DNA of 38,270 nt from Candidatus Doudnabacteria bacterium (GCA_037200925.1 JBBCGO010000001.1:139552-177821), one strand, 5' to 3'. Numbered from the stretch's first letter, positions 10,176-12,725 are shown. The notes: generated by a model not told the origin, from the sequence alone. Numbers and translations: made by a program.

Positions 10176-10571
10176 TCATCGGCTTGATTTCCTAAATCCC
10201 GCGGCCTTGGCTTCAGCTTCCGTGGTAAAACAGCGGATGGGATGAGTTGTCTTATTATAAAAAGCTCCGCCGGGCATATGGTATATCATACTTGAGGAAC
10301 CTTTGATCTTTCCGGTGCAGTTCAAACTGCCTGAGCTATTGGGTGCCGCAACAGTTTTCGTGCTCGCAGATTGTATTGACGGCTCGTTTGGATTATAATT
10401 ATCAGGTATTGAGGCCGCTTGCTCAATATGTACTTGCGACACCGATGGTTGAACCGGAGACTTTGGTGAAGAAAATCTGCCCAGTCCGAATGCAAGCACC
10501 CCGACTAGCACATAACCTACTGACAATACGATTATGTGTTGGTGGGTTTTTATATAATCTTTCCAATTCAT
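10176..10571 (-). CDS. Membrane-anchored protein with C-terminal Ada-like metal-binding domain
   Basis: N-terminal TM, Pro/Ser linker, IKGSSSMIYHMPGG.FY...CFTTEAEAKAAGFRKS. Confidence 0.75.
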   Translation of the reverse strand: MNWKDYIKTHQHIIVLSVGYVLVGVLAFGLGRFSSPKSPVQPSVSQVHIEQAASIPDNYNPNEPSIQSASTKTVAAPNSSGSLNCTGKIKGSSSMIYHMPGGAFYNKTTHPIRCFTTEAEAKAAGFRKSSR

Positions 10572-11915
10572 ATGCAGTATGCCTTTATTTTAGGGAGGGT
10601 ATATACGCTGTCCTTGGCCGAGCTCCTTGGCGTTTTAGCATTGCTCGGAGTAACGTCCAAAGTTTTGGCATGCTCGCCCGAGGTGGTAGTGATCGAAACG
10701 GACAAACCTCTTAGTGCTGACTCGCTTCAGGCCCGTTTGGGCGGAACCATTAAAATTATACGCTTATTCGACACTTTTCAAAAGAAAGGCAAGGAATACC
10801 CCACGGCTGTTCTGACCAACTATTTCACTTTTAAACGCATAAAAGAATATTTCCACGAATACACGGGCAAGAAACAATTCGGCGTGTCCATCTATTCGCT
10901 GGATCCCGCTATCCGGTTTCGCGAAGAACCGACCAGGATCGCTTTTTTGATAAAGAAAATTTTACAGGACCAGGCGCAAAGCGTGCGGGCGGTCCTTCCT
11001 CAATTCCCCTCTCAAGCTTTGTCCTCGGTCCAGGTCACGGAAAATCAGCTGCTGCAAAAGGGCGCTGAGGTTGTGGTCATCTCCGGCAATCAGCGCATCT
11101 TTGTCGGTAAAACTCTTGTGGTGCAAAACTACGAAGATTACGGCCGGCGCGATTATCAAAGACCGGCCAGGGACGAGAAGGTCGGCATGATCCCGCCGAA
11201 AGTGGCCCAGACCATGATCAATCTGGCCGGACCGCTCAAGCCCCTGGAATTTATTTTAGATCCGTTCGCAGGCTCGGGTACGATCCTGCAGGAAGCAATT
11301 CTTATGGGCTACCGCGCCATAGGCTCGGATATTGAACAGAAGATGATCGAGAACAGTGAAAAAAATCTTGAATGGTTTCGAAACCGTTATGATGTGGCTC
11401 CAAACCGATACAAACTGTTTAAGGCCAATGCTGCTGAAATTTCCATTCAGATACCCAAGCAAAAAGTGGCGGCTGTCGTGACTGAAGGTACCTTGGGCCC
11501 GATCTACGGAAAATTGCCGAAAAAAACTGAAATGCAAAGTAATTTTAAAGCCTTAAGCAAACTTTATGACCAGGTCTTCAAAGAGTTTAAAAAATTCCTG
11601 GCAGAGGGCTCGAAAGTAGTTATCTGTCTGCCGGCATATAAGCTGAACATGTCTGACTATGATTTCATGCCGAATCTTGACTTTATAGCCGAAAACGGGT
11701 ATATTGTTCTGGAACCTTTGCCGGAATATTTAACAGTGAAATATAAGTTTCTGAAAGTTACGCCGAGAAGATCGATAATTTACGACAGAAATGACCAGCT
11801 GGTGGCAAGGGAAATATTCATGATCCAGTATGGTAAACAAGAAAATAATCAGGAAACTGTAATAGAAAACGCGGATGCGTTGGAGACAGGATCCGAAGAG
11901 AAAGGGTTGGAATAA
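10572..11915 (+). CDS. SAM-dependent RNA methyltransferase (Trm11/UPF0020-like)
   Basis: RDYQRP.RD..VGMIPPKVAQTMINLA, ILDPFAGSGTILQEA, GSDIE, VVTEG.LGP. ATG 10572 preferred over GTG 10536, which would overlap the divergent gene. Confidence 0.8.
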   Translation: MQYAFILGRVYTLSLAELLGVLALLGVTSKVLACSPEVVVIETDKPLSADSLQARLGGTIKIIRLFDTFQKKGKEYPTAVLTNYFTFKRIKEYFHEYTGKKQFGVSIYSLDPAIRFREEPTRIAFLIKKILQDQAQSVRAVLPQFPSQALSSVQVTENQLLQKGAEVVVISGNQRIFVGKTLVVQNYEDYGRRDYQRPARDEKVGMIPPKVAQTMINLAGPLKPLEFILDPFAGSGTILQEAILMGYRAIGSDIEQKMIENSEKNLEWFRNRYDVAPNRYKLFKANAAEISIQIPKQKVAAVVTEGTLGPIYGKLPKKTEMQSNFKALSKLYDQVFKEFKKFLAEGSKVVICLPAYKLNMSDYDFMPNLDFIAENGYIVLEPLPEYLTVKYKFLKVTPRRSIIYDRNDQLVAREIFMIQYGKQENNQETVIENADALETGSEEKGLE

Positions 11916-12057
11916 TACTGTTTTTACGAAAAAATTGAGTCGCAGTCCAGCTCTTGCACGCAAGGGCTGGGCGAGAACAATTTTTTCGGGAGGAGCAGTA
12001 TGGATACCGTAGCGTATTTGCGAAGCAAATCGCGAAGTGTATCCCCAACTGCGACGA
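11916..12057 (+). promoter_or_regulatory. Structured 5' leader of rpmA (candidate cis-regulatory RNA)
   Basis: Nested stems 11927-11937/11978-11988 (perfect 11 bp), 11947-11956/11961-11970, 12002-12007/12039-12044, 12016-12021/12025-12030; alternative pairing 11939-11946/12048-12055. Confidence 0.5.
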
Positions 12058-12336
12058 ATGGCTCATAAGAAAGCCGGCGGCTCTACAGCTTTAGGCCGGG
12101 ATTCGCAATCACAAAGACTAGGCATTAAATTATTCGGCGGCCAAACTGCCAAAGTTGGCTCAATTCTGGTCCGCCAGCGCGGCACCAAATGGCATGCCGG
12201 CAAAAATGTCCGCAAAGGCTCTGACGACACGCTCTATGCCGCTTCGATCGGCACCGTAAAATTCACAGGAAAAAAAGTCCGCGGCTTTGACGGCAACTTG
12301 CATCACCGCCGTTTTGTTCACGTAATTTCAAAATAA
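12058..12336 (+). CDS. rpmA: 50S ribosomal protein L27
   Basis: [48 protein letters not shown]. Confidence 0.97.
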
Positions 12337-12368
12337 ACCGCTTTCCTCTAAAAATTTCGGGAGGAACA

Positions 12369-12725
12369 ATGTTTGTTGACAAAGCCTTGGTCAATATTGC
12401 CACGGTTGTGGTGGATATTACGCCGCTGCAAGCCATCCAGATCGCCGGCACCAAAAAAGAGCTCGCGCGCACACTTCAGAAAACTTCTGACCTGTCCAAG
12501 ACAGGCAACTTTGAGAATTCCCGGGTCATGCTCTGCACAAATGCGCATTTGCACCGTCACGGCAACGAGCCGAATTTCCGCTACCAGATACAAGGATCAA
12601 GCCGAGAGGTCTCTCAGATAATCAGCCTGTTGGAGCTGGGCGAAACGAAGCTGTTCAAGTTTCAAAGGCCTAATTTCAATACGGCGACCCCGCAAACTTC
12701 GTCCACTACGCAAGACATTGCCTAG
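12369..12725 (+). CDS. Hypothetical protein (118 aa)
   Basis: GGGAGG Shine-Dalgarno site upstream; no family recognised. Confidence 0.6.
   Translation: MFVDKALVNIATVVVDITPLQAIQIAGTKKELARTLQKTSDLSKTGNFENSRVMLCTNAHLHRHGNEPNFRYQIQGSSREVSQIISLLELGETKLFKFQRPNFNTATPQTSSTTQDIA

Follow-up and report, generated by a model that had tools for sequence, protein, structure and literature searches.

In ompA, with its 5' hairpin, and in the Bacillus STAB-SD, a stem near the 5' end of the transcript is followed by a Shine-Dalgarno (SD)-like sequence that needs no local translation start. The RNase III sites of the T7 early messenger RNAs (mRNAs) offer a parallel as processing signals, and small dispersed repeats similar to the Correia elements of Neisseria include the REP/BIME, ERIC and RPE sequences. 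The Correia elements (nemis) are described as being transcribed together with neighbouring genes, forming hairpins, being able to supply expression signals and being potential RNase III substrates (PMC2649163). For the genes 38 and 25 of phage T4, split ribosome-binding sites have been reported, in which a helix reduces the distance between the SD site and the AUG from 22 to 5 nucleotides (nt) and from 27 to 11 nt, respectively (PMC3014915). The subject of this study is the spacer upstream of rpmA, the gene for ribosomal protein L27, in a stretch of 38,270 nt from a Candidatus Doudnabacteria bacterium (GCA_037200925.1, JBBCGO010000001.1:139552-177821), the whole of which is called the window below. 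This spacer represents a single copy of a structured RNA leader of roughly 120 nt, which is specific to the lineage, occurs in many copies and is apparently mobile.

Like the T4 sites (PMC3014915), the element has an SD sequence far from the AUG and a conserved helix between the two, which would here reduce a distance of about 62 nt to 5-7 nt. Unlike them, it contains a conserved rod of 55 nt with purine loops, is present in multiple copies, and is also found in front of transfer RNAs (tRNAs), transfer-messenger RNA (tmRNA) and 5S ribosomal RNA (rRNA). Furthermore, the bases immediately 5' of the AUG form a helix with its site, and the split site is here a prediction from the sequence. With the Correia elements it shares the intergenic location, a length of roughly 100-150 base pairs (bp), many copies per genome and the formation of hairpins (PMC2649163), but it has no terminal inverted repeats, a strict orientation and distance, two different hairpins, cross-genus covariation and no transposase candidate. 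The ribosomal-protein leaders in Rfam are likewise structured 5' regions directly before a ribosomal-protein gene; in contrast to them, the element matches no Rfam model, is not operon-specific and is not conserved at rpmA orthologues. By analogy, the likeness to ompA and STAB-SD could explain why the motif is used upstream of non-coding RNAs, but these two are single-gene features that lack a conserved second hairpin. Full-text literature searches and two 2026 preprints yielded no published description, with subscription journals and supplements mostly uncovered, and the element is thus apparently undescribed.

Structure and covariation of the leader element

The rpmA spacer harbors a full copy of the dispersed two-hairpin element, which spans 134 nt (11924..12057; all window features given here are on the plus strand) and fits the covariance model R1 with 112.2 bits and an E-value of 1.8e-28. 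From 5' to 3', the element consists of hairpin A, the purine stretch GARAGGAG, the rod-like hairpin B (helices P0, P1 and P2, a 3x3 purine loop, and P3), and the end GCGACG-N. Hairpin A (11927..11988) was taken from the minimum free energy (MFE) structure, and its A-rich 5' arm CGAAAAAATTG pairs with the U-rich 3' arm CAATTTTTTCG. Further inside lies a UCG/CGA helix; the internal loops are rich in purines, and the sequence of the GC-rich tip differs from copy to copy. Next comes GGGAGGAG (11988..11995), which follows the family consensus GARAGGAG and is complementary to the 16S 3' tail CUCCUUUC. Among 100 copies the most common variants of this 8-mer are GAGAGGAG (56 copies), GAAAGGAG (17), AAAAGGAG (7) and AAGAGGAG (6).

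The AGGAG part (11991..11995) is at the same time the 5' strand of P0, in which it faces CGACG, with one G-C pair on either side of a tandem G.A and A.G. The first G-C pair (alignment columns 140/257) is GC in 95, CG in three and CC in one of 100 copies, i.e., the rare G-to-C change is compensated in three of four cases, and the flanked G.A and A.G are retained in 96-97 copies. P1 is formed by CAGT (11996..11999) and ACTG (12048-12051). The segment 12002..12044, with P2, the purine loop and P3, is supported by covariation, and its loop letters are near-invariant. P2 pairs 12002-12008 with 12037-12044 and has one bulged U; the 3x3 loop is GTA (12009-12011) facing GAA (12034-12036), the family form being G-U/G-A facing G-A-A; and P3 covers 12012-12033 with a GAA loop (12022-12024), with a bulged pyrimidine and a variable end in the family alignment. 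The last segment (12048..12057) contains the 3' strands of P1 (ACTG) and P0 (CGACG) and one final base, and this conserved end GCGACG-N reaches the start codon. The CGACG letters are found in 87 (C), 99 (G), 99 (A), 96 (C) and 97 (G) of 100 copies. As a whole, hairpin B corresponds to some 25-28 bp of irregular helix, in which the internal loops are conserved.

Covariation was analyzed with two alignments. One contained 22 full copies from the own genome (the copy before tRNA-Glu-CTC and two partial copies were omitted), the other contained 100 copies from 24 genomes, which were aligned by R1 (the 25-bit match L115 was omitted). With the 22 copies, RNAalifold recovered hairpin B, and 15 of its 17 pairs were doubly changed. 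For a 32-pair structure, 93.9% of the cells in these copies could pair, versus 81.0% after shuffling and 32-45% when the partners were slid, and double changes were present in 21 of the 32 pairs, including four of four in P1. The results were similar for the 100 copies: 94.4% of the cells paired versus 69.2% after shuffling, 32 of 34 pairs were doubly changed, the number of doubly changed cells was 763 versus 208 expected, and none of 500 shuffles reached any of the observed measures. As the model itself produced this alignment, and as the copies share ancestry and recombine, the cell counts exceed the true number of independent events, yet the signal is still large. In the same set, the three helices of hairpin A were 83-97% paired with double changes in 14 of 14 pairs, P2 was 92.9% paired (five of five pairs), P3 95-98% (eight of eight), and in P1 together with the P0 G-C pair, counted as one helix of five pairs, four pairs were doubly changed. 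The helices therefore covary across genera.

An earlier sequence-only reading of this spacer had proposed a translational switch for L27, with a hidden SD site, an upstream open reading frame (uORF) and two exclusive folds. The folding itself was confirmed: the region 11916-12068 has an MFE of -62.4 kcal/mol compared with -39.3 +/- 4.0 for shuffled sequences (n=200, z -5.75, none of the 200 as good), and the MFE structure contains the long hairpin 11916-12000 and a second hairpin capped by GC-GAA-GC. The long hairpin indeed pairs GGGAGGAG (11988-11995), which had been described as hidden, but its outer 10 bp use the flank 11916-11925, which is located outside the repeat and differs in other copies. 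Similarly, GTCGCAGT (11939-11946) and ACTGCGAC (12048-12055) are complementary as described, but this alternative helix of 8 bp is unique to the rpmA copy and shows no covariation. Eight contiguous complementary bases were found in one of 100 copies, seven in five copies and fewer than four in 38; GTCGC occurs in the 5' arm of only 30 copies, and the 3' strand of the alternative helix covaries with P1 instead. An open reading frame (ORF) of 22 codons (12000..12068) does overlap the rpmA start, yet it is incidental to the rpmA copy and not a feature of the element. Its start triplet is ATG in 28, GTG in four and CTG in four of 100 copies, the others having triplets that are not start codons, e.g., AAG (19) and ACG (eight), and several copies read ATG-TAG at this position. 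That rpmA has no site of its own held true: a GGAG-type site is absent from the 20 nt preceding its ATG.

Two further readings of the sequence were tried and rejected. A kink-turn (K-turn) built from the GA motifs was dismissed on manual inspection, because the compensated G-C pair of P0 occupies the would-be unpaired loop position, and the loop between P2 and P3 is a symmetric 3x3 loop. Hairpin A was not called as an intrinsic terminator in a consensus scan of 11500-12500; in the rpmA copy the T run starts 8-9 nt past the GC-rich stem (0-2 nt in a terminator), and it is interrupted in many relatives.

The spacer of 142 nt is bordered by two genes of the same strand. Upstream lies a gene for an RMKL-like (UPF0020) methyltransferase (10536..11915; Pfam PF01170, E 3.5e-11), and downstream rpmA (12058..12336), which encodes a protein of 92 amino acids (aa) with the N-terminus MAHKKAGGS, the orthologues of which match Pfam Ribosomal_L27. 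Searches for tRNAs and tmRNA in the window were negative. A search of the whole window with Rfam 15 at the gathering score gave no match, and at E-values up to 10 the region 11700-12400 gave a single, irrelevant match of 10.8 bits. The DNA contigs of the same study break within the repeat core, at 12006-12040 (two DNA runs, compared over 11400-12700); an RNA run of that study yielded no contig over this interval, which says nothing about expression. An ORF of 118 aa 3' of rpmA (12369-12725) has a strong site, GGGAGGA, 4 nt ahead of its ATG, and it has no Pfam match.

Copies in the own genome and in relatives

The own genome (964,444 bp, single contig) contained 26 BLAST matches with the spacer as query. 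Two rounds of nhmmer gave 27 rows, 25 of which were below 1e-8, and R1 also gave 25 matches, with the reservation that the model E-values are rough. There are 23 full copies, and two copies consist of hairpin A only. All 23 full copies end with GCGACG-N and lie on the same strand as the adjoining gene start. ARAGORN placed 11 tRNAs and the tmRNA 0-2 nt behind full copies, and tRNA-Phe 4 nt behind a hairpin-A-only copy; a full element is present at 11 of the 47 tRNAs of the genome. Eleven full copies precede ORFs, i.e., rpmJ, rpsK, rpmA, rpsL, rplJ, rplL, rpoC, nusA, efp, nrdR and a PilN-like ORF, and in these cases the ATG follows 0-2 nt past GACG. Gene calls were ORF heuristics; Pfam was run for S11, EF-P, NrdR, PilN and the window ORFs, and the remaining ORF names were read from the N-termini.

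Some copies lie 3-22 nt behind a good -10 box, others are intra-operonic (rpsM|rpsK, rplJ|rplL, rpoB|rpoC) or located between two tRNAs. The tips of hairpin A and the variants of hairpin B occur in differing combinations, i.e., the copies are mosaics. The 3' end motif GCGACG is not over-represented genome-wide (307 occurrences found versus 372 expected). At three tRNA genes, tRNA-Ile(TAT) at 683938, tRNA-Arg(GCG) at 898516 and tRNA-Ser(GCT) at 901093, GCGACGA stands directly before the tRNA with no further element sequence; one GCGACGA before a tRNA sits 3 nt past a TATAAT box. The minus strand at 624086 has a stem resembling hairpin A, then GAAA-GCGACGC and an ATG, with no hairpin B. Both kinds of site could represent shortened versions of the element or traces left by its deletion. 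Another observation concerns the rRNA genes of this genome: tRNA-Ile(GAT) at 759,540 and tRNA-Ala(TGC) at 759,930, a pair that normally resides in the rRNA spacer, are separated by about 12 kb from the end of 16S (3' end near 747,340), which suggests an unlinked or heavily interrupted rRNA operon.

With R1 and E-values up to 0.001, matches were found in 24 of 41 related genomes, distributed over the families as follows: f1 18 of 24, f4 three of three, f2 and f3 one of four each, f5 none of two and f6 none of three. The element-bearing relatives have 1-11 matches, versus 25 in the own genome. At E-values up to 1e-12, 26 of 146 genomes of the class matched (f1 18 of 24, f4 five of nine, f3 two of 95, the rest none). 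A strict pattern scan over one genome per GTDB species gave 48 loci; 17 match the model, including a weak one of 25 bits in an unrelated phylum, and 31 are chance occurrences. By record title, the 16 clear loci belong to Candidatus Doudnabacteria (nine), Candidatus Saccharibacteria (three), Verrucomicrobiia (two), the Patescibacteria group (one) and Candidatus Methylomirabilota (one). Outside the lineage, bases 216-324 of L151, from a record titled Candidatus Eremiobacteraeota, are a weak model match (25.3 bits, E 1.9e-5). Several Acidobacteria and Mogibacterium records contain repeated matches to the strict DNA pattern and no model match; these are possibly another conserved sequence.

The set of copies in relatives comprises 78 copies from 23 genomes. 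A tRNA or tmRNA on the same strand adjoins 45 of them at 1-5 nt, and an ORF start adjoins 23 at 0-2 nt. One copy lies 3 nt ahead of a 5S rRNA, three precede 5' fragments of disrupted tRNA genes, one reaches the contig end at a tRNA-like start, and one is the upstream member of a tandem pair. The ribosomal-protein ORFs behind the element encode L27 and L33 (two each), S20, L17, L20, L23 and S3, and the other ORFs encode NusA (two), Clp_N (four), Fpg, ThyA, CorA, an MBL-fold protein and one HisRS-like protein. Two further ORFs with N-termini like that of the HisRS-like ORF and one PilN-like ORF gave no Pfam hit. The orientation is therefore the same throughout these classes: the element is co-directed with the gene behind it and ends 0-5 nt before the 5' end of a tRNA, tmRNA or 5S rRNA, or 0-2 nt before an AUG. 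Rfam detected only tRNA, 5S, small-subunit rRNA and group I intron in ten loci of relatives.

Several loci of relatives deserve mention of their own. Bases 3-721 of L044 (relative G008) are a group I intron (Rfam, 59.1 bits) in a 16S rRNA near model position 928, with a full element in the P8 loop; the GCGAGGA end of this copy pairs with the 5' strand of P8. Behind the element in L062 (relative G001, bases 270-680), a tRNA-Glu(TTC) breaks off at the anticodon loop after its 5' half; some 295 nt of inserted sequence come next, and then a complete tRNA-Glu. The frame in the insert looks like a putative small GIY-YIG nuclease, and the arrangement looks like a mobile insertion with a duplicated tRNA 5' half. 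Short tRNA 5' fragments directly behind the element are also present in L077 (268-373) and L083 (268-309), with a different complete tRNA 43-107 nt further on; they look like footprints of tRNA gene replacement. In L070 (relative G016) a long, near-perfect hairpin of about 100 nt without an Rfam match or an ORF lies 3' of the element, and it may be another non-coding RNA.

At orthologous genes the element is gained and lost among close relatives. An rpmA match was found in 37 of the 41 related genomes, but the element is upstream of rpmA in only three of 30 related loci, and according to R1 it is absent from a genome of the same genus. The neighbourhood is otherwise maintained, as the same conserved C-terminal coding sequence of the methyltransferase lies upstream of rpmA in relatives. 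In five element-free relatives the tmRNA starts 9-37 nt behind a -10-like box, and the cassette thus is a dispensable insertion between promoter and mature end. For the proposed switch, which was specific to L27 and combined a regulatory uORF with two exclusive folds, these results are decisive. The rpmA copy does contain the extended hairpin, the uORF and an alternative helix of 8 bp, but the 25 matches lie before tRNAs, the tmRNA and unrelated ORFs, the alternative helix reaches at least 7 bp in only six of 100 copies, and Rfam contains no ribosomal-protein leader, or any other known family, that matches. The genome-wide search for further copies had been suggested together with the proposal, many copies at unrelated loci being named as the result that would speak against an rpmA regulator, and this is the result that was obtained. 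Because of the copies at unrelated genes, the three of 30 rpmA loci and the poor conservation of uORF and alternative helix, the element is not an L27 autoregulatory site, and we regard that mechanism as extremely improbable. The second idea of the sequence-only reading, an inserted palindromic element, finds general support but says too little, as the element is more than a palindrome, i.e., a covarying RNA family with strict position and orientation.

The patchy distribution raises the question of a selfish or neutral mobile repeat without host function, the structure of which serves its own propagation. Such a repeat would survive where it is harmless: behind a promoter but ahead of a mature tRNA 5' end, in a stretch that RNase P trims away, or before an AUG, as it brings its own ribosome-binding site. 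Many dispersed copies that are patchy among relatives, as in miniature inverted-repeat transposable elements (MITEs) or REP-type repeats, are indeed present; close relatives have anything between 0 and 25 copies, and at rpmA even a same-genus genome lacks the element. The tandem and partial copies, the mosaics, the plain promoter beside the tmRNA of element-free relatives and the copy in the P8 loop of the group I intron, a typical permissive site, would also fit. However, terminal inverted repeats are absent from the alignment: the ends YTACRAAA and GCGACG-N are not complementary, and the palindromes are internal. Searches of the 95.9% complete genome for the Y1/RAYT transposase (PF01797) and reverse transcriptase (PF00078) gave no match for either, other enzyme families not being included, and neither of two pattern hits in viral contigs fits the model, so they are not true copies. 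Moreover, all 23 full copies of the own genome and at least 68 of the 78 in relatives are co-oriented with and within 5 nt of a start, although the wider rpmA spacers of relatives would allow insertion anywhere. Strong purifying selection and compensatory changes across genera suggest that the RNA itself is used. A purely selfish repeat is a serious alternative, but an unlikely one.

A candidate split ribosome-binding site

The 16S 3' end of the own genome is at position 747319, and its tail is canonical. All eight bases of the GARAGGAG stretch can pair with this tail in 76 of 100 copies, and 89 copies contain the AGGAG core. At ordinary genes of the genome the most frequent spacing between AGGAG and the start is 5-6 nt (19 and 28 among 157 occurrences). 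For the element, the linear distance from AGGAG to the AUG corresponds to the value given above, and in silico only CGACG and 0-2 nt are left when P1 to P3 are looped out. In the 11 ORF copies there is no space in which a second ribosome-binding site could lie. Two hallmarks of a split site were thus found in silico, the complementarity to the own 16S tail and a covarying P1-P3 unit that would cut the spacing to the range of the genome.

The best explanation for these results, in which we have moderate confidence, is a portable, lineage-specific, multi-copy structured leader cassette with a split ribosome-binding site. The element would be transcribed as the 5' leader or as the intercistronic spacer of the downstream unit. 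Hairpin A may act as a 5'-proximal stabilizing stem. In mRNAs such as that of rpmA, GARAGGAG would be the only SD site, and P1-P3 would bring it to 5-7 nt of the AUG, with the weak P0 pairing probably holding the site in a state that is defined, independent of context and possibly gated. Ahead of tRNAs and tmRNA, the same cassette would be removed by RNase P, the RNA of which is present in the own genome. Recombination between copies may spread and homogenize the family, and the conserved purine loops could indicate a binding partner.

Several points weigh against this explanation. The AGGAG is retained at similar rates ahead of RNA genes (49 of 55 copies) and ahead of ORFs (33 of 34; the difference is not significant, Fisher p 0.24), and an SD role alone therefore cannot explain its conservation. 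P0 pairs AGGAG inside the RNA and would, in the model, hide it from the ribosome. SD sites are not generally used in this genome: 127 of 834 long ORFs have a 4-mer SD site at the first start versus 8% at random positions, and rpmA of most relatives has none, so that L27 can be made without the cassette. The near-invariant positions, about 35 in number, exceed what a spacer hairpin needs, which suggests a further partner. The within-genome copies are recombining paralogues, so that cell counts overstate the independent events, and with 61 G-U versus 58 A-C in paired columns the pair counts alone are compatible with selection on either strand. There are also positional exceptions, namely the copy in the intron P8 loop, a copy facing a convergent tRNA-Leu and two copies without a recognised gene behind them. 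Finally, we infer the transcription, the 5' ends and the processing of the element.

The same placement at mature ends could instead mark a processing, or 'punctuation', signal. An endonuclease, RNase III or a dedicated enzyme, would recognise hairpin B and cut near its 3' side, and the cut would free the downstream tRNA precursor or an mRNA with a short unstructured leader. The irregular hairpin of about two helical turns that is characteristic of an RNase III-type signal is present as hairpin B (P0-P3), and its helix equivalent and conserved internal loops, as given above, are suitable. The positions between cistrons (rpsM-rpsK, rplJ-rplL, rpoB-rpoC) and between tRNAs, and the ends beside mature 5' ends, 5S rRNA included, would also agree with a processing site, and for Correia elements, binding of RNase III as well as cleavage or protection by this enzyme have been reported (PMC2649163). 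As most genes start without an SD site, a short bare leader would suffice. However, the element stops anywhere between 1 and 5 nt short of the tRNA 5' ends, which means that it does not itself define the mature end, and RNase P RNA is available; in addition, the 8-nt complementarity to the 16S tail would be left unexplained. We consider a mere processing signal decidedly unlikely.

The set of adjoining genes points to one further alternative, a global cis-regulator. One protein, one ligand or the free 30S subunit would bind the loops or the complement of the SD site, open or close P0, and thereby co-regulate the maturation of tRNAs and the translation of genes for ribosomal proteins, RNA polymerase and factors. 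The occurrence of the same element before tRNAs, tmRNA, 5S rRNA, ribosomal-protein genes, rpoC, nusA, efp and nrdR would be in accordance with this, as would the many near-invariant unpaired purines, the P0 helix that sequesters AGGAG and touches the start, and the conservation of AGGAG before non-coding genes too. On the other hand, many close relatives lack the element, as do most tRNAs of the own genome, and the set of carrier genes differs among genomes, unlike a fixed regulon. Such a regulator is therefore very unlikely. In its boldest form, the element would be a lineage-wide cis module of stable-RNA precursors (tRNA, tmRNA, 5S) and of mRNAs for translation and transcription, in which the 8-nt SD complement and the P0 helix beside the start would allow free 30S, or a protein or ligand at the conserved purine loops, to set tRNA maturation and ribosomal-protein translation, i.e., an RNA 'growth-rate regulon' in a bacterium poor in regulators; this is a speculation with a small chance of being right.

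Implications for Candidate Phyla Radiation genomes

The rpmA spacer is also a warning for annotation, as a single copy of such an element is not to be read as a gene-specific riboswitch. Bacteria of the Candidate Phyla Radiation have tiny genomes with few recognisable regulators, and the control of the expression of their translation machinery is barely known. As many as 25 copies of the element occur per 0.96 Mb, and they lie precisely where tRNAs, tmRNA, 5S rRNA and ribosomal-protein genes have their 5' boundary. Even if it were selfish, the strictness of its placement would still reveal the positions at which genomes of this kind accept insertions. If a common factor binds to the copies, this would be a new kind of global control. 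If the portable leader with a split site is true, it would be a natural, context-independent expression cassette, and the first split site known outside phage.

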